From a virus, in the UHGV virus genome UHGV-0100642: a stretch of 21,173 nt of DNA; one strand, given 5' to 3'. Positions 572-21,173 of the stretch are shown piece after piece; positions within the stretch are counted from its first letter, which is position 1, and every line of letters starts with the position of its first letter. A program made the position numbers and the translations under genes. The notes beneath the pieces are model-generated. The model made no database searches. It was not told where the DNA came from and saw only the letters and a list, made by a program, of their open reading frames with translations.

Positions 572-895
572 ATGAAGATGCCAGAAAAACATGACCTGTT
601 AGCCGCCATTCTCGCGGCAAAGGAACAAGGCATCGGGGCAATCCTTGCGTTTGCAATGGCGTACCTTCGCGGCAGATATAATGGCGGTGCGTTTACAAAA
701 ACAGTAATCGACGCAACGATGTGCGCCATTATCGCCTGGTTCATTCGTGACCTTCTCGACTTCGCAGGACTAAGTAGCAATCTCGCTTATATAACGAGCG
801 TGTTCATCGGCTACATCGGTACTGACTCGATTGGTTCGCTTATCAAACGCTTCGCTGCTAAAAAAGCCGGAGTAGAAGATGGTGGAAATCAATAA
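572..895 (+). CDS. S: Class I holin, lambda S type, with dual-start motif Met1-Lys2-Met3 (antiholin/holin)
   Basis: 107-aa translation [32 protein letters not shown]... is essentially the lambda S protein as recalled. ATG at 572 and second ATG at 578. Overlaps the start of R, as in lambda. Confidence 0.96.
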
Positions 896-1355
896 TCAAC
901 GTAAGGCGTTCCTCGATATGCTGGCGTGGTCAGAGGGAACTGATAACGGACGGCAGAAAACCAGAAATCATGGTTATGACGTCATTGTAGGCGGAGAGCT
1001 ATTCACTGATTACTCCGATCACCCTCGCAAACTTGTCACGCTAAACCCAAAACTCAAATCAACAGCAGCCGGACGTTACCAGCTTCTTTCCCGTTGGTGG
1101 GATGCCTATCGTAAGCAGCTTGGCCTGAAAGACTTCTCTCCGAAAAGCCAGGACGCTGTGGCACTGCAACAGATTAAAGAGCGTGGCGCTTTACCGATGA
1201 TTGATCGCGGTGATATCCGTCAGGCTATCGACCGTTGCAGCAATATCTGGGCTTCACTGCCGGGCGCTGGTTATGGTCAGTTCGAGCATAAGGCTGACAA
1301 CCTGATTGCAAAATTCAAAGAAGCAGGCGGAACGGTCAGAGAGATTGAGGTATGA
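879..1355 (+). CDS. R: Endolysin, lambda R-type lytic transglycosylase
   Basis: 158-aa translation [39 protein letters not shown]... matches lambda R as recalled. The stop overlaps the Rz start (ATGA). Confidence 0.96.
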
Positions 1356-1789
1356 GCAGAGTAACTGCGATTATCTCCGCTCTGGTTATCTGCATCATCG
1401 TCTGCCTGTCATGGGCTGTTAATCATTACCGTGATAACGCCATCGCCTACAAAGAGCAGCGCGACAAAGCCACATCCATCATCGCTGACATGCAGAAGCG
1501 TCAACGTGACGTAGCAGAACTCGATGCCAGATATACAAAGGAGCTTGCTGATGCTAACGCGACTATCGAAAGTCTCCGTGCTGATGTTTCTGCTGGGCGT
1601 AAGCGCCTGCAAGTCGCTGCCACCTGTGCAAAGTCAACGACCGGAGCCAGCAGCATGGGCGATGGAGAAAGCCCAGGACTTACAGCAGATGCTGAACTCA
1701 ATTATTACCGTCTCCGAAGTGGAATCGACAGGATAACCGCGCAGGTTAACTACCTGCAGGAATACATCAGGACGCAATGCCTGAAATAA
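1352..1789 (+). CDS. Rz: Rz i-spanin (inner-membrane spanin subunit)
   Basis: N-terminal ~31 aa ([31 protein letters not shown]) match lambda Rz, then the sequence diverges. N-terminal transmembrane segment plus coiled-coil periplasmic domain. Position immediately after the endolysin. Confidence 0.9.
1551..1736 (+). CDS. Rz1: Rz1 o-spanin (outer-membrane lipoprotein), embedded in the +1 frame of Rz
   Basis: Alternative-frame ORF inside Rz. AAGGAG 7 nt upstream of the ATG at 1551. Signal peptide [19 protein letters not shown] followed by Cys (lipobox VSAC) and a proline-rich mature part ([14 protein letters not shown]...). The track ORF starts earlier, at 1524. Confidence 0.8.
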
Positions 1790-14652: not shown

Positions 14653-16041
14653 ATGGCTACTTGGCAAGGAACAAACGGCGGATTGTTGGCTGGTATCGGC
14701 GGCGTCAACTCAAACGCTCCGAGCGTAAATGACATCGGCAATACGCTTCAGCTTATCAGGCAGAACAATGATATTGAGCGTTCAGGCGCTAACAATGTTG
14801 GGCTGACTGCTTTGCAAGGCCTTTCAGGTATTGCGGGTGTTTTTCAGCAGGAAAAGCAGGCTCAGCGGAAGAAAGAATTTCAGCAGGCATACGCTAATGC
14901 TTATGCGTCTGGTGATCGCGGTGCTTTGCGTCAGTTAGCTACTCAATATCCAGACCAGATTGAATCCGTTCGTAAAGGCATGGGATTCATTGATGAAGAC
15001 CAGCGCAATTCCATCGGTACCTTAGCGGCTGGCGCCCGCCTTGCGGCATCGTCTCCAGAAGCGATGCAATCATGGCTGCAAAACAACGCCAAGGAACTGA
15101 CTCGCGTCGGTGTTGACCCTAATAACGTTGCTCAGATGTATCAGCAGAATCCTTCAGGATTTGGTGAGTTTGTTGATCACCTTGGGATGGCTGCTCTTGG
15201 TCCGATTGATTACTTCAATGTTCAGGACAAGATGGCTGGTCGTGAAATTGATCGCGGAAAACTTGCAGAGACAATCCGCAGCAATCAGGCTGGCGAGGCG
15301 CTAACAGCACGAGGCCAGAACATCACGATGCGCGGTCAGGACTTATCTGCTTCTACTGCGCGACGAGGTCAGGATTTGGCAATGCAGCGAGCGTCAACAA
15401 GAGGAATCGCTGGGAATGATGAGCGTACAGTTCAGTTATCAGATGGCAGAACTGTAACGGTAGGCGGGAAGCTTCACGGCGCTGGGGCTAATGCGTTCTA
15501 CGAAGGCGTCGACAACGAGGGGAATATGGTTCGCGTTCCTGCCAGTTCAATCGCAGCGCCTGCAACATCGTCTGCATCAGCACAAAACTATGCCATGAAG
15601 AAGGATATCGACGCGATCACAAATGCAGACGCTTCTGCTCTCGATTTCATGACAGGAATGACAGGCGGTGCAGGTAATCCAGCAATTGGTGCTGATGTTC
15701 GCAGCAGATTAACAGGAAAAGAGCAGCGCCAGTTATATAACTCAGCACAACGGATTCAGGGCAGAATGCAGAATCAGGGTGTGGCGGCAGCAAGGGACAT
15801 GGGTGCCAGTGGTATTAACACCGTTGCAGAAGCGAAGATGTATTTTCAGGGGATGCCGCAGGTTGACTATTCAAGCCCGGAGGCTATGCAGCAGTCGATT
15901 CGTGAGATTCAGGAATACACCAACAATTACAACCAACAATATAACGTTAATGTTGGTAAATCTCAGCGGCAGCAATCTCAACCTGCACAGGTATCACAGC
16001 CAGCAGCCAGCAGTAACTTTTCTTCACTATGGGGTGATTAA
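14653..16041 (+). CDS. Ejection protein, P22 gp20-like
   Basis: 462-aa ORF following gp7. Assignment by conserved gene order (gp7, gp20, gp16) and composition. Confidence 0.7.
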
Positions 16042-18038
16042 TGGCTAAAGCATGGAAAGATGTTATCGCCTCTCCACAGTATCAGGCGTTATCACCAGAA
16101 CAAAAAGCGCAGGCTCAGGAGCAATACTTCAATGAAGTCGTGGCCCCGCAAGCCGGAGAAAATGCAGAGCAGGCTAAGCAAGCTTTCTATGCTGCCTATC
16201 CATTGCCATCTGTGCAGCCAGTGGAGACACAACAACCAGAAGCACAGCAACAACCACAGCAAACTGGATTTATGTCTGATCTTGGTGAAGCCGTGAAAGA
16301 AACTGGTCGCGGACTGGTGCAGGCTGGCGTGAACGTGGCAAACATACCTGCATCAGTTGCCGATGCTGTAACAAGCGCTGCGGCTTGGGCTGGCGGTAAA
16401 CTCGGTATTGGCGATGGTACATATCAACCAGCGCCACGAGTAACAACGCAGGGATTAGAGCAGGACTTTGGCCTTCAGCAAGGTGCGCTGACTCCACAAA
16501 CGACAGAGGGAAGGGTATTTGCTGAAGCATTGCCTTACCTCACTCCTGCTGGCGTTGAGAGAGCGGCGGTACAGGCACCAACACTTGCAGGTCGAATTGC
16601 TCAGGGGGCAACTCGCCTTCTAGCAGAAAACGCAGTTGGATCACTTGCTGCAAATAGTGCGAAAGATGATGCGGAAGCACTCGCCACCGATTTAGGCGTT
16701 GGTGTGCTGGCTGGCGGTGCTATTAACGCTGCCGGACGTGGATTAAGTGCTGCTTATCGTGGCGTTCGTGGTGCTATTGCGCCAGAAGCGCAGCAGGCTA
16801 TCAGATTTGCAGAGCGTGAAGGAGTTCCTCTGCACACCACAGACCTGTTACAACCAACTTCCCGCGTCGGAAAAATGGCGCAGACTACAGCAGAAAATAT
16901 CCCTCTGGCTGGCACAAGCGGAATGAGAGCAACGCAACAGGAAGCGAGAAGCCAGCTGGTGCAGAGATTTGCCGATAAATTCGGTGAGTATGATCCAGCG
17001 GTTGTTATTGACAGCCTTAAAGCGAAAACATCAGGAATTCGTCGTGCCGCCGGTAATCGACTGGAGCAGGTTCAGAATGCTATGGTCGGAGTAAACATTC
17101 AGCCTGCGCGAGCAATTCAGCAGATTGATACAGAAATATCTAACCTACAGAAGCTTGGTAAGGTTGCTGATAACGAGACTATTTCAAAACTTCAGTCATA
17201 TCGTGATGAGCTTGTTCGCAATGCTGGCCCTGATGGTCCTGTAAATCTGGATTTGAAGCAATTAAGCGATCTGCGCAGCCAGTTCAGAATGGACGTGAAG
17301 GGTGAGCGACCAGTGTTACCAAACCGTTCCGATGCTGCCATTCAGCGCGTTTACAAGGCAATGACCGACGATATCAATGGTGCCATTGGTCAGAATCTTG
17401 GCAACGATACTCTCCGTAAATATCAGCAGGCCAATGCCGTCTACGCTGACGAAGCGGCGAAACTAAAGAATACCAGGCTGAAGAATGTTCTCATGAAAGG
17501 CGACCTGACGCCGGAAGTCGTCAACAACATGCTATTCAGCAAGAACAAATCGGAAATTAAGACGCTGTATAACTCAGTTGGTCGTGTTGGCAGGGCGCAA
17601 ATGCGCAATGGCATCATTGGAAAGGCGATGGAGAAATCTGACGGATCCCCTGACCAGTTCCTTCGGCAGCTTAACATTCTGCAAAACCAGACTGGCATCA
17701 CATTTAAGGGGCAGGACGCTGCTTATCTGAAAGGATTAAAAAACTACCTGCAATCCACGCAGCAGGCTGCAAAAGCGGCAGTAACAACACCAACAGGGCA
17801 GCAAACCATCCCGTTCATTATTGGATATGGGACGGCAATGAACCCGGCGACAACTGGCGCAGCAGTAAGCTACGGCCTTCTTGCTCGCGCCTATGAGAGC
17901 GAGCCATTCAGAAATGCAATGCTCCGAATGGCAAACACCCCACGCGGATCGACAGCGTTTGAGAAAGCCATGCAGCAAGCGCAAAAAGCGATTAATGCAC
18001 TGACGCAGGGTGCTAAGTCTGATTCGTTGTCAGAATAG
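16041..18038 (+). CDS. Ejection protein, P22 gp16-like
   Basis: 665-aa ORF, third of the ejection-protein trio. Start overlaps the previous stop (TAATG). Confidence 0.7.
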   Translation: MAKAWKDVIASPQYQALSPEQKAQAQEQYFNEVVAPQAGENAEQAKQAFYAAYPLPSVQPVETQQPEAQQQPQQTGFMSDLGEAVKETGRGLVQAGVNVANIPASVADAVTSAAAWAGGKLGIGDGTYQPAPRVTTQGLEQDFGLQQGALTPQTTEGRVFAEALPYLTPAGVERAAVQAPTLAGRIAQGATRLLAENAVGSLAANSAKDDAEALATDLGVGVLAGGAINAAGRGLSAAYRGVRGAIAPEAQQAIRFAEREGVPLHTTDLLQPTSRVGKMAQTTAENIPLAGTSGMRATQQEARSQLVQRFADKFGEYDPAVVIDSLKAKTSGIRRAAGNRLEQVQNAMVGVNIQPARAIQQIDTEISNLQKLGKVADNETISKLQSYRDELVRNAGPDGPVNLDLKQLSDLRSQFRMDVKGERPVLPNRSDAAIQRVYKAMTDDINGAIGQNLGNDTLRKYQQANAVYADEAAKLKNTRLKNVLMKGDLTPEVVNNMLFSKNKSEIKTLYNSVGRVGRAQMRNGIIGKAMEKSDGSPDQFLRQLNILQNQTGITFKGQDAAYLKGLKNYLQSTQQAAKAAVTTPTGQQTIPFIIGYGTAMNPATTGAAVSYGLLARAYESEPFRNAMLRMANTPRGSTAFEKAMQQAQKAINALTQGAKSDSLSE

Positions 18039-18128
18039 CTTTTCAAACACCAGGAACGTGCAAAAACCAAATATGTAGAACGCGAGGTTTATCGTATCCC
18101 TCTGCATAGGCGATACCTTTGCTGATTG

Positions 18129-18614
18129 TTATCTGATGTTACTGCTACTGTTGCATGTGACTGTATTTCCAAACCCTGAATTGCAGTTTGTGTAAGTGTC
18201 AACTCGTGTTGGATAGGGTTGAGTTATAACAGGCTGTCTCGCTTTTTGCTCGATCGCTTGCATTGTGTTTACAGCCTGATAATTCAATAAAGCCTGCTGG
18301 AATGCTTGGCTTTGTGCTATTTGTTGTGCTTGTTCTTGGCTTTGTAATTGAACATAAAGATTCTGAAGCTCAAGTCTTGCCTGAGCGTCACTTATCTTGC
18401 CTTCATCAACACCTTGCCCGAGCATCTTTGCAGCAAGGACATACAGCTTAGGTGTTGGTGCAGATGCCATGCGTGAGTCGTTCTTCACACTGGCATCAAG
18501 GCAATTAGCCATATCGCTAAGCTTTTGATAGCGTTGTTCGCAACTTGCTTGATAGTCACTTACTTTTGCGCATCCAACCAGCAGAAGCGGGATAATTAAC
18601 AGTGATTTTTTCAT
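18129..18614 (-). CDS. Lipoprotein (161 aa), candidate superinfection-exclusion or lysogenic-conversion factor
   Basis: Signal peptide MKKSLLIIPLLLVG followed by Cys (lipobox LVGC), a Q-rich predicted helical middle and a Cys-containing C-terminus. AAGGAG 8 nt upstream of the ATG at 18614. Lies downstream of mnt on the same strand, in the position P22 uses for sieA. Confidence 0.7.
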   Translation of the reverse strand: MKKSLLIIPLLLVGCAKVSDYQASCEQRYQKLSDMANCLDASVKNDSRMASAPTPKLYVLAAKMLGQGVDEGKISDAQARLELQNLYVQLQSQEQAQQIAQSQAFQQALLNYQAVNTMQAIEQKARQPVITQPYPTRVDTYTNCNSGFGNTVTCNSSSNIR

Positions 18615-18684
18615 ATGGTTAACTCTCCTTAGTTTTTCACAGGATATCATGAAGGCAATGCCATTTTAGCCGGAAACTAGATTT

Positions 18685-18951
18685 CTATGTTTCCTTTTTA
18701 TTATTGCTATACATGGTCTTAAGCGTTTCAAAAACCATTTTCCTAACCATATCGGATTGTTGTTCTGCCATACGCTCTGCATCGTCAATGTAAACTGATG
18801 CAGAGATTTGTTTATCCAATGATTCCTCAATCGCTGCAATTATCTCTGAGTTCAGCGATCTGTTATTCATCTTCGCACGCTGTTTAATTTTCGCGTGGAG
18901 TTCATGCGGAAGTCTCAAGTGAAACTGCGCCTCGTCGTATTTGCTGTACAT
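18685..18951 (-). CDS. mnt: Mnt-like ribbon-helix-helix repressor (Arc/Mnt family)
   Basis: ...NNRSLNSEIIAAIEESL...DDAERMAEQQSDMVRKMVFETLKTMY resembles P22 Mnt as recalled. AAGGA RBS before the ATG at 18951; the track start at 18984 is further upstream. Confidence 0.8.
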   Translation of the reverse strand: MYSKYDEAQFHLRLPHELHAKIKQRAKMNNRSLNSEIIAAIEESLDKQISASVYIDDAERMAEQQSDMVRKMVFETLKTMYSNNKKET

Positions 18952-19072
18952 CCTTGATGCCTCACCAGGTGGGTGGAATGGCATCGTAACTTACTGGATA
19001 AATACTCAATAGTACCATTTCGGCATGCAATCAAATCATGGTTGCACCATATCATTCGTCTGGAGCAATGAA
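18952..19072. promoter_or_regulatory. Divergent intergenic control region between mnt (-) and tailspike (+)
   Basis: 121-bp AT-rich spacer that must hold the mnt promoter and any tailspike-proximal promoter. Contains the short palindrome CACCAGGTG at 18963-18971. No promoter hexamers could be assigned confidently. Confidence 0.4.
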
Positions 19073-21173
19073 ATGTCAGATATCACCGCAAATGTTGTGG
19101 TAACCAATCCGCGCCCAATATTCACTGACTCGCGCACGTTTAAGGCTATTGCAAACGGACGCGTGTATATCGGCCTTCCTGATACCGACCCTACCATTGC
19201 TGCCAACCAAATTCCCGTTTATATCGAAAATGAGGATGGAAGATTGGTTGAAATTTATCAGCCTCTAATCATCAATGCGGCTGGTAAAATTGTATATAAC
19301 GGACAGGTTGTAAAGGTGGTAACTGCGCAAGGTCACAGTATGAAGGTCGTGGATGCTTACGGCGTTCAAGTCGACTACATCAGTAACATTCTTAAGTATG
19401 ATCCGGACCAGTTCAGAAACTTTGCCTTAGAAAACTTTGATTACTCAATTTATAAGCGCATTGTGGGATTTTCTTTCTTCACTGGCGCGACCGTTACGGA
19501 TTCCAAGCACACCCTCATTTGGGATTCAACTAATGGAGGAAACGGACATTATTATCGGTATCTTGGAACCATCCCTAATGGCGGCCTTGTAGTTCCACCG
19601 GCCAGCACTCCTGACTCAAACTGGGAAGACATAGAGCTTAATCAGATAGTCAGCATCCGAAAACTAAACGAGCTTTCCACGCAAAGCATCGCAGGCTATA
19701 TCGGCGTCAATATTGATATGCCGGTGGCAGTGAAGGATTCTGACAATCAGGGCGCGAAAATTAGCTCTGGTGTCTGCGTAACAAATCCGGTGCCCAACGC
19801 AAATATTATCAGAGCCACTAAAATTCAGTCTGTATTCAGAATTGATGGAGATAATGTCACAATTAGAGATGTTGTTGGGCTAGGTTCTGCCGCTTCTGAT
19901 AATGCTGCCACATCGGAATTCATCACCACTCGCATGCGATTCGTGGTCGATGGGCTGAGAACAAAAGGCCTGCGTTTTACTGGAATAAAAGCTAGCAAAT
20001 TTACAACAGGAATAAACGTAACAGGTTGCGATGATGTTGTTATTAAAGACTGTTATTTCGAGGATATGCAATATTCTCCAGTAACACTTGGCTCCGCTGG
20101 AGGATATGGTGTCTTAACAGGAGCAAGTAATGGCGTTCTTGTGGATGGTCTTAAATTCAAGGCTAACGCATATGGTCGTCATGCTGTATATATTAGTAAT
20201 GTTCAGCCATATGTTGACGTAGCGACGAGCGGAAGTTTTAACACAACGGTAAGAAATTGCGATCTGGATTATACACTCGCCGATTTGACTTTGAGTGATA
20301 GTGGGTTTGCTCCTATCAACGTAAGGTCTAGTGAAAATACAATCATTGAAGAAAACAGGCTCAAAGGTTCAGCTTCTTTAGTTAGCTTCAGCAATGATCA
20401 GGGGGCGATTTCTAAATGCATCATAAGAAATAACAGGGCGGTAGGATTAAAATCAGGGCAGGGAAGAGTCTGCGCTGCATTTAATCTAGGTCGTTCTGGC
20501 ATTCCTAATCCAATCACAGATATTGAAGTAAGCGGAAACTATTCAGAGATATCAAAAGGACCAGGTCAGCCTGATGGTAATGACCAAGCTGGCAGATTTA
20601 TCGGACACAATGGGCTGAGGATTATAAGGAACCATTGCATTCAGGAGACAGGGGCCGCTTATCTTTTAGATCGATGTTCAAATTTCTTTATTGACGAGAT
20701 TACTGATATTCTGACAAACACCGCAAATCCAGCAGGCGCTCAAACAATATATCTTAACGCATGCAGTAATGGCACCATAGGCAGCATTAAAACAAACCGT
20801 CCAGCGTTTGCAAACGGTAAGTCTAATATTGTCGGCGGTCTTGCTACTTGTTCAGAAGTGACTTGCAATTTTCAAAGATATATTGAATTCACCCTAACCA
20901 AAGGAGCTGTTTCATTAGTCGATGATGCCTTTGATATGATCTCTTCTGGAGGTATATCATTTGGTGATGGATTCATTACGGTAGCCTTACGTGCTCATGT
21001 TACCGATAGGGCAGTTGCTGGATGCACCGTTTATACGCGAACCAGTAATGGTGTAATCCTTACCAAGAGTGCAATTAACGATAAAACTATCACTATAAAT
21101 TTTCTCGTATCATCAACGGGTGCTTTGCAACCTATGAGCCAATACACAGGTAGAGTTGGTATAACTTTTTACG
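19073..21173 (+). CDS. Tailspike protein, 5'-partial in window (700 codons, no stop reached)
   Basis: N-terminal ~115 aa ([34 protein letters not shown]...[11 protein letters not shown]) match the P22 gp9 head-binding domain. GGAG RBS 8 nt upstream. The rest is a divergent domain with beta-helix-like repeats. Frame is open to the last base of the window. Confidence 0.9.

Follow-up and report, generated by a model that had tools for sequence, protein, structure and literature searches.

Phage-encoded lipoproteins such as Cor, Llp and Ltp act in exclusion at the cell envelope. The first two, Cor of phages phi80, HK022 and N15 and Llp of phage T5, are outer-membrane lipoproteins that block FhuA. 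Ltp of the Streptococcus phage TP-J34 halts DNA injection at a stage after adsorption (cited in PMC10883804 and PMC3952083). In the P22-like phages, 22 of 66 of which were found to carry sieA, the SieA protein blocks DNA injection via the ejection (E) proteins encoded next door to it, and types A-C of the protein have been distinguished by Leavitt et al. 2024 (PMC10883804). Here we consider a gene that stands in the place of sieA in the virus genome UHGV-0100642, the whole 21,173-nucleotide stretch of which is hereafter called the window. It is an accessory, "moron"-type gene of P22-like prophages that runs antisense to the late operon, and on the evidence of sequence comparisons its 161-residue product belongs to an undescribed lipoprotein superfamily with four conserved cysteines. 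As to its function, we tentatively favor superinfection exclusion at the level of the envelope.

Comparison with described exclusion proteins

A first-pass annotation of the window had drawn attention to this gene as lying where P22 places sieA, and P22 sieA is indeed found at the equivalent position and in the same orientation, after gene 16, downstream of mnt and before the tailspike gene. The two products are similar in length (164 aa in P22 and 161 aa here), and both are envelope proteins encoded by prophage genes. However, BLASTP with P22 SieA gave no alignment at E<=100, and no PHROG or Pfam entry links the two proteins. Moreover, SieA is a polytopic inner-membrane protein, whereas the lipoprotein has a single, putatively cleavable signal and an outer-membrane sorting residue, and lacks the cytoplasmic FxRYPxEAxxFNK motif of SieA.

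Cor and Llp are closer in kind, being likewise small, phage-encoded, lipobox-bearing and directed to the outer membrane, and their mechanism is of the sort that we propose below. Yet the match of the lipoprotein to the Cor PHROG (phrog_1119) is limited to residues 1-31, in the region of the signal peptide (E=0.035), and the protein is about twice as long (mature form 147 versus about 60-80 aa) and mainly helical. Its carriers, furthermore, are short-tailed, O-antigen-binding phages. Ltp resembles it as a prophage-expressed, lipid-anchored and mainly helical protein, but Ltp acts in Gram-positive bacteria, on the tape-measure protein of phages with long tails, and no homology between the two was detected in the searches made here. 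Similarly, lambda Bor/Iss is a moron of the late region that encodes an outer-membrane lipoprotein and is transcribed from the prophage, but it differs in genome position and architecture, and no sequence relationship to it was found.

Systematic searches yielded no known family either. There were no above-threshold matches for the lipoprotein in Pfam, NCBIfam or PADLOC, a profile search of PDB sequences gave no match below E=0.37, and Foldseek searches with two AlphaFold models reached best E-values of 0.5 against BFVD and 1.1 against the PDB. The first-pass annotation had not recognized the family of the protein, and the lack of any match in these four sequence resources agrees with that assessment; the remote homology searches and structure prediction that it recommended recovered no known family or fold. 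A literature search with protein accessions, and for "lipoprotein" in P22-like phages, turned up no work on this gene. The name "GspK" borne by one Cronobacter homologue was rejected, its score being 18.9 bits against a cut-off of 130 bits. An identity as the outer-membrane spanin subunit (o-spanin) was also rejected, as the lysis cassette lies about 16 kb away and the lipoprotein gene is antisense to the late operon. The lipoprotein is thus outside the SieA, Cor, Llp and spanin families, which the first three it would resemble at most in action, with a distinct architecture in an undescribed superfamily.

The gene and the architecture of its product

The open reading frame (ORF) is a real gene under purifying selection, and the possibility that it is not a gene is excluded. 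Comparison with 5 orthologs of 94-98% nucleotide identity gave dN/dS values of 0.029-0.054, and the translation matches PHROG 6067 over its full length (residues 1-161 against profile positions 1-161, E=1.6e-110). PHROG 6067 is of unknown function, and its RefSeq members are named "hypothetical protein" or "lipoprotein" (WP_000749287-type). The Shine-Dalgarno (SD) sequence, TAAGGAG, is a 7-nt match to the anti-SD that is strong in sequence, though its 10-nt spacing is rather long. It is kept in Gally, VSe13 and 720R6; in more distant orthologs other SDs occur at the equivalent position, and in all of those compared the start is at the MKK position behind its own SD. A longer, 173-aa reading from an ATG at 18650, present in the mechanical ORF list, was rejected because it has no SD and is not conserved. 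The coordinates, the lipobox and TAAGGAG therefore uphold the 161-aa lipoprotein ORF with a strong SD that was originally described. The features of the gene and its surroundings are collected in Table 1.

Table 1. Coordinates of the lipoprotein gene, the segments of its product and neighboring features in the window (CDS, coding sequence; PWM, position weight matrix)
Feature	Coordinates	Strand	Basis or remark
Prolipoprotein CDS, 161 aa	18129..18614	-	ATG 18614-18612, stop 18131-18129; ORF list and sequence
Predicted signal peptide, residues 1-14 (MKKSLLIIPLLLVG)	18573..18614	-	PS51257-type pattern
Lipobox L-V-G-C	18570-18581	-	Cys15 at 18570-18572, Ala16 at +2
N-terminal helical domain, residues 16-95, Cys25 and Cys38 invariant	18330..18569	-	Alignments, AlphaFold
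Gln-rich continuation of long helix, residues 96-125	18240..18329	-	Variable; missing in short (~125-135 aa) remote relatives
Pro-rich linker (126-140) and C-terminal Cys-loop hairpin (141-161)	18132..18239	-	Alignments, AlphaFold
Shine-Dalgarno TAAGGAG	18625..18631	-	10 nt 5' of ATG; sequence
Candidate own promoter, extended -10 TGaTATCCT	18641..18649	-	PWM score 5.96, 99.5th percentile of window
mnt-lipoprotein spacer, exactly 70 nt	18615..18684	-	mnt stop to lipoprotein ATG
mnt homologue, 88 aa, Arc/Mnt ribbon-helix-helix repressor	18685..18951	-	Pfam Arc 3.5e-14, Repressor_Mnt 4e-11
Divergent control region, mnt/tailspike, homologous to P22 Pmnt/mnt-operator	18952..19072	.	Alignment with P22, Gally, Brookers
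gp16-type DNA ejection (E) protein gene	16041..18038	+	PHROG 770 "DNA transfer protein", E=2e-239
Tailspike gene, P22 gp9-like head-binding N-terminus	19073..21173	+	Translation, RefSeq matching prophages; runs off window end
Lysis cassette: holin, endolysin, Rz-type spanin	572-1789		~16 kb from lipoprotein gene

The N-terminus of the protein, MKKSLLIIPLLLVGC, combines a pair of lysines with a hydrophobic core and the lipobox L-V-G-C. A proper check of the lipoprotein signal had been recommended at the outset, and the PROSITE PS51257-type lipobox rule is satisfied by this protein and by all 78 of 78 full-length homologues. Cys15, predicted to carry the lipid as the first residue of the mature protein, is invariant in the family alignments, and among the same 78 homologues the residue at +2 is Ala in 72, Val in 4 and Thr in 2, and never Asp. 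Under the Lol sorting rule, lipoproteins without Asp at +2 proceed to the outer membrane. Sorting to the outer membrane is predicted from this rule because the +2 residue is Ala, and the protein is probably exported as an outer-membrane lipoprotein.

The mature protein comprises 147 aa with a calculated isoelectric point of about 7.9, and is polar, helical and Gln-rich, the signal peptide being the sole hydrophobic stretch of the precursor. An AlphaFold model built with a 54-sequence alignment contains helices at residues 18-28, 32-45 and 53-70, a long helix at 76-125 and, at low confidence, a beta hairpin at 139-159; the predicted local distance difference test scores are 82-91 for residues 20-100. 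Conservation, measured as column entropy, is highest (entropy lowest) in the N-terminal domain, and lowest in the linker and the Gln-rich helix; Gln makes up 32% of residues 86-125. The C-terminal hairpin bears the motif T-x-C-x3-G-N-x3-C-x-S, whose two cysteines, Cys144 and Cys154, are invariant across the superfamily sample. Together with Cys25 and Cys38 they form a set of four that is invariant in the family and in the sampled remote relatives. As the members of each pair lie on adjacent helices or on the two predicted hairpin strands, respectively, two disulfides, Cys25-Cys38 and Cys144-Cys154, are probable. Such bonds would fit an oxidizing compartment, that is, a periplasmic or surface location.

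Phyletic distribution and the wider superfamily

A search of 5.8 billion proteins recovered 94 homologues, the most distant at about 48% identity, in E. coli (one cluster of 871 members), Citrobacter, Serratia, Cronobacter, Klebsiella aerogenes, Pectobacterium, Yersinia, Morganella, Providencia and Tatumella. Of 5,426 complete E. coli genomes, 186 (about 3%) carry the gene, with proteins 95-99% identical; it also occurs in 5 of 50,697 phage records, the four inspected being Lederbergvirus, and in 5 of 185,579 species-representative genomes. Accordingly, the gene is carried sporadically by prophages and is restricted to Enterobacterales.

A profile search of 1.84 billion cluster representatives extended the family considerably, to 251 clusters at E<=1e-3, counted at 50% identity, and 96 at E<=1e-10. 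Members of this superfamily are mostly 125-135 aa long, with the same lipobox, N-terminal domain and C-terminal T-x-C-x3-G-x4-C motif, and without the Gln-rich extension. For 24 sampled members there was no Pfam match and no NCBIfam model above its cut-off, and neither database gave an above-threshold match for 23 remote relatives. Tblastn with remote members recovered only the same five phages.

The genomic context of remote members was inspected in a small sample of six loci, which is not a census. 1) One protein of 125 aa (P0247) is encoded between an integrase gene and a convergent gene for a 4,480-aa polyvalent ParB/methylase/helicase protein. 2) The gene of a related protein, also of 125 aa (P0118), abuts that of another such polyvalent protein, 4,839 aa long and also containing MuF_C, at a contig end that leaves no upstream context. 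3) A third member has an MmeI-type restriction enzyme on one side and an integrase on the other. 4) A fourth is inside a small integrase-bearing element. 5) A fifth, two-domain member is flanked on one side by copper-resistance genes and on the other by ThsB-TIR/SLATT genes, and the 13 kb examined showed no integrase. 6) The sixth (P0242), a weak match without the Cys pair, sits among chromosomal genes such as priA. Hence four of the six loci adjoin integrases, restriction systems or giant polyvalent proteins, an integrase being beside three of them, and this points to the remote members as mobile-element cargo. The giant proteins in the first two loci combine ddrB-ParB, an Eco57I-type methylase and a helicase, and in both cases the lipoprotein gene is convergent at their end. 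This placement echoes the position of the lipoprotein gene beside that of the ejected gp16 in the P22-like phages.

Organization of the locus in P22-like prophages

In every P22-like locus examined the lipoprotein gene directly follows a gene-16 homologue, to which it is convergent, and only its upstream side varies. This fixed position was seen in at least five arrangements, in E. coli, Salmonella, Serratia, Yersinia, Morganella, Proteus and Tatumella, and with several types of gp16 protein, ranging from 490 to 885 aa. The arrangements are: 1) mnt followed by the lipoprotein gene across a 70-nt gap, in this window and in E. coli B7A and 2012C-4606; 2) the same order with a 17-nt gap in Proteus phage Brookers, whose lipoprotein has 55% protein identity; 3) mnt, a small ORF and then the lipoprotein gene, in E. 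coli O104:H4 and Tatumella, the former with a full arc-ant module beyond mnt and so with the exact P22 layout in which the lipoprotein gene replaces sieA; 4) the lipoprotein gene separated from mnt by an opposing gene, in Gally, 720R6 and VSe13; 5) the lipoprotein gene without any mnt, in prophages of Yersinia ruckeri, Morganella and Serratia. In the Morganella prophage (L008, 5893-6000) the upstream DNA retains only the final ~25 nt of an mnt like that of Brookers (L012, 3440-3500), with a perfect TATAAT in it; therefore mnt has been deleted there, whereas the lipoprotein gene and a promoter-like remnant were kept. In none of about a dozen loci examined, which again are not a census, did sieA and the lipoprotein gene occur together.

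The window itself is a typical P22-like late region, with genes for holin, endolysin, Rz spanin, a Rha-like protein, terminases, portal and gp7- and gp20-like proteins. The original description of a lipoprotein gene 70 bp from mnt, co-oriented with it and opposed to the flanking late genes, is accurate in both coordinates and strands. On the other side, a 90-nt gap (18039-18128) separates it from the convergent gp16-type gene. The Mnt homologue is 45% identical to P22 Mnt and is an orphan, no arc or ant gene being present in the window. As the P22 Pmnt/mnt-operator-like region upstream of mnt borders directly on the tailspike start at 19073, Mnt may control a promoter derived from Pant whose transcripts now enter the tailspike gene at once. 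Residues 163-384 of the gp16-type protein match a PHROG labeled "transglycosylase" (E=2e-31), and RefSeq labels its orthologs "lytic transglycosylase domain-containing"; Pfam detected no lytic-transglycosylase domain in seven gp16 homologues. A 243-aa ORF for a Rha-like regulator or anti-repressor (1777-2508) lies directly 3' of the lysis cassette and 5' of the terminase genes. No RNA family was found in the window with Rfam.

The G+C content over the lipoprotein and mnt genes (18000-18900) is 0.37-0.45, against 0.48-0.56 in the upstream late genes, a drop that would fit cargo acquired separately and perhaps also silencing of the H-NS type. A segment of 280 nt (18463-18742), which covers the spacer together with the adjoining 5' part of the lipoprotein gene and 3' part of mnt, shows no differences from E. 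coli 2012C-4606, while its flanks differ by 3-4%; it could be a recent recombination patch or reflect local constraint.

Expression in the lysogen

The first-pass annotation had supposed that the gene is expressed in the lysogen, and published RNA-seq data on a close ortholog back this supposition. LF82_138, or GALLYPH_13, of prophage Gally in E. coli LF82 (NC_011993, locus at 1032854-1037235) is identical to the window gene at 94.7% of nucleotide and 97.5% of protein positions, and its expression was given, as log2(fpkm+5) (fpkm, fragments per kilobase per million) in two replicates, in tables S1 and S4 of Misson et al. 2023 (PMC9928086). The values are 6.29 and 5.96 in overnight LB culture, 7.87 and 8.15 in the bacteria-only sample B1, 8.02 and 8.22 in the bacteria-only sample B6, and 10.29 and 10.30 at 1 h and 8.70 and 8.54 at 6 h in macrophages. 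By comparison, the adjacent gene 16 stays at 3.6-4.15 across all five conditions, and mnt is at approximately 3.7 in LB, 5.7 in B1, 7.0 in B6, and 9.0 and 8.4 in macrophages at 1 h and 6 h (PMC9928086). The lipoprotein transcript thus exceeds that of mnt in every condition. Relative to the prophage median it is 4.5-fold higher in LB, and relative to gene 16 about 20- to 80-fold higher in the other conditions; overall it is about 5- to 80-fold above the silent neighboring late genes. Between LB and macrophages it increases with a log2 fold change of 2.55 (q=4.7e-27), the rise at 1 h being about 18-fold.

Misson et al. used a 5-fold cut-off for a "moron" and concluded that Gally carries none (PMC9928086), a conclusion that depends on this LB cut-off, which the lipoprotein gene narrowly misses. 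Transcription in the lysogen beside silent flanking genes, one hallmark of a moron, was found for the ~95%-identical LF82 ortholog only. As to the other, a promoter and terminator of its own on the flanks, the window offers a weak extended -10 and no terminator-like site on either side, and stronger promoter candidates exist in other arrangements. The divergent neighbor GALLYPH_14, a 139-aa protein of unknown function, is at 3.3-fold in LB; it and GALLYPH_13 reach log2(fpkm+5) values of 8-11 in the other four conditions, when neighboring late genes are at about 3-4. These two are the most transcribed genes listed in the Gally late region (GALLYPH_9 to _17).

In the P22 record, sieA is annotated with a separate promoter, and the mnt-orf59a unit is followed by a terminator. 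The Gally lipoprotein gene must also have its own promoter, since an opposing gene separates it from mnt, and a good candidate, TTCATA-16-TAGAAT with an upstream TG, is present; promoter-like elements in fact precede the lipoprotein gene in every arrangement. In the window, the 70-nt spacer contains no terminator that we could find, only a weak hairpin (GGAAAC..GTTTCC) that overlaps the mnt stop and lacks a U-tract. For this reason read-through from the mnt promoter is plausible in this arrangement, and the recurrence of a tight mnt-lipoprotein tandem in distant phages supports co-transcription. The first-pass annotation had proposed just this, because of the short gap and for want of an obvious promoter of the gene's own. 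Co-transcription with mnt remains plausible for the window but is not required of the family, given the opposing gene or missing mnt elsewhere; and an own promoter candidate does exist in the form of an extended -10 (TGnTATCCT), even though it is weak, with a poor -35 (CTAAAA, 18664-18669). The same TGaTATCCT occurs in VSe13, where mnt is not adjacent, and the predicted leader would be about 20 nt, including the SD.

An imperfect palindrome, CATGATATCCTG, overlaps this element at 18640-18651 and has a near-copy, CATGGTATCCTG, in VSe13; it could be a putative regulator binding site, or a chance occurrence at such a length. A better-scoring promoter, TTGCCT-16-AAAACT, was rejected because transcription from it would begin inside or after the SD. 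Conservation of the spacer in 2012C-4606 and B7A is uninformative as promoter evidence, the whole of 18463-18742 being near-identical. Further upstream there are Pmnt-like hexamers, TTGAGT (19004-19009) and TACGAT (18983-18988), with a spacer of 15 nt versus 17 nt in P22 and Gally, and a second promoter-like site at 19079..19051. Judged from these motifs, the lipoprotein gene is most likely transcribed here through read-through from mnt together with its weak own promoter.

Functional interpretation

The first-pass annotation had suggested that a secreted lipoprotein at this place could block phage receptors or DNA entry or alter the cell surface. Among the functions considered we rank envelope-level superinfection exclusion first, because the gene occupies the slot of SieA and exclusion at the envelope by phage lipoproteins has well-known precedents; by this analogy we would give it somewhat less than an even chance of being right. 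Also in its favor are the lipobox and the invariant cysteines, the constraint on the gene, its fixed place beside gene 16, the lack of any examined locus with sieA as well, the expression of the LF82 ortholog from the prophage, and the neighborhoods of the remote relatives. The protein would be exported by Sec, lipidated at Cys15 and, with Ala at +2, sorted by Lol to the outer membrane, at whose inner face it would hinder incoming phages at a step that follows adsorption. The step blocked might be penetration by the tail needle or of the outer membrane, the use of an outer-membrane protein as a secondary receptor, or assembly of the trans-envelope conduit of gp7, gp20 and gp16. By binding a conserved envelope component, the lipoprotein would do the work of SieA, Cor or Llp without being homologous to them. 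The very low dN/dS speaks for a partner of this kind, a conserved host component such as an outer-membrane protein or a part of the cell-wall machinery, rather than a fast-evolving phage protein. A bolder version, that the lipoprotein founds a new, non-homologous class of exclusion proteins stopping P22-like phages after adsorption by disabling a conserved envelope component that the needle or the E proteins need for penetration, and that the four-cysteine superfamily is a widespread, overlooked envelope defense on mobile elements, we regard as speculative and rather doubtful.

Several observations weigh against exclusion. The strong purifying selection and the 50-99% identity found across Enterobacterales are unlike what an arms race with the fast-evolving E proteins would produce; they fit a conserved host partner, which would suit a role outside defense equally well. 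No likeness in sequence or fold connects the lipoprotein to SieA, Cor or Llp, or to any entry of PADLOC, Pfam, the PDB or BFVD. The slot may be a permissive insertion site, and position alone is weak evidence. The promoter in the window is weak and the Pmnt-like spacer has only 15 nt, making the level of expression in this particular prophage uncertain. Finally, the ~18-fold induction of the LF82 ortholog at 1 h in macrophages, together with its four neighbors, hints at regulation by the host environment.

This last observation leads to the main alternative, which we rate somewhat below exclusion and as less likely than not, namely that the gene is a moron for host fitness or virulence which, in the manner of Bor/Iss, alters the envelope for serum or complement resistance, survival in phagocytes, stress tolerance or adhesion instead of defending against phages. 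The rise of the LF82 ortholog from 6.1 on the log2 scale in LB to 10.3 at 1 h and 8.6 at 6 h in macrophages speaks for it, but the five genes at the right end of Gally, among them mnt and the tailspike gene, all respond together, which makes the induction unspecific for this gene, and deletion of mnt left survival in macrophages unchanged (PMC9928086). In the text searched, a CRISPR interference screen of LF82 in the gut highlighted other Gally genes and not that of the lipoprotein. The gene is carried by pathotypes such as adherent-invasive E. coli (AIEC) LF82, the enteroaggregative and Shiga toxin-producing (EAEC/STEC) O104:H4 and enterotoxigenic E. coli (ETEC) B7A, but also by environmental and animal isolates and by plant-associated Pectobacterium and Tatumella. 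Strong purifying selection would again fit a conserved partner on the host side, and the low G+C content (0.37-0.45 versus about 0.5 in late genes) is typical of xenogeneic genes under host regulation.

Still less probable is immunity, conferred by a periplasmic lipoprotein, against toxins that target peptidoglycan or membranes, such as effectors of the type VI secretion system (T6SS) or colicins and pesticin, or a surface exclusion of conjugation resembling that of TraT. Superfamily members do yield sub-threshold NCBIfam matches to a T6SS immunity lipoprotein (0.0069), TraV (0.0054) and LvhB7 (0.0086), but these fall far below the curated cut-offs and involve short segments rich in cysteines or in signal-peptide residues. 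Such immunity might be read from the context of the superfamily, in which two remote members adjoin the giant ParB/methylase/helicase proteins and one a restriction system and an integrase, yet no toxin partner gene adjoins the lipoprotein gene in any P22-like locus examined. The "transglycosylase" segment of the adjacent gp16-type protein also favors it, against which stands the missing Pfam domain in the seven homologues. A related proposal, that the lipoprotein is an inhibitor of lysozyme or transglycosylase aimed at gp16, was dropped on this account and because several gp16 types accompany it. We give the least chance, a very slight one, to assistance in the lytic cycle, either by masking receptors, so that progeny are not lost to the debris of lysed cells, or in lysis or virion release. 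T5 Llp is a precedent for a lipoprotein that masks a receptor in the lytic cycle, and the gene lies inside the late region beside the ejection-protein and tailspike genes; but it is antisense to the late operon and expressed while late genes are silent, the window has a complete lysis cassette of its own, and a P22-like tailspike already destroys the receptor.

Significance

As a conserved, prophage-expressed gene in the sieA slot, the lipoprotein gene is an obvious next candidate for a determinant of exclusion, and AIEC, ETEC and O104:H4 strains are among its carriers. If exclusion is indeed its function, it would direct attention to the passage of podovirus DNA through the outer membrane or periplasm, a poorly understood step of delivery, and would have a bearing on host range in phage therapy. 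If it serves host fitness instead, its ~18-fold induction in macrophages in a Crohn's-associated strain would make it a candidate modifier of virulence. On either reading, it provides a first handle on a sizeable, undescribed superfamily of lipoproteins.

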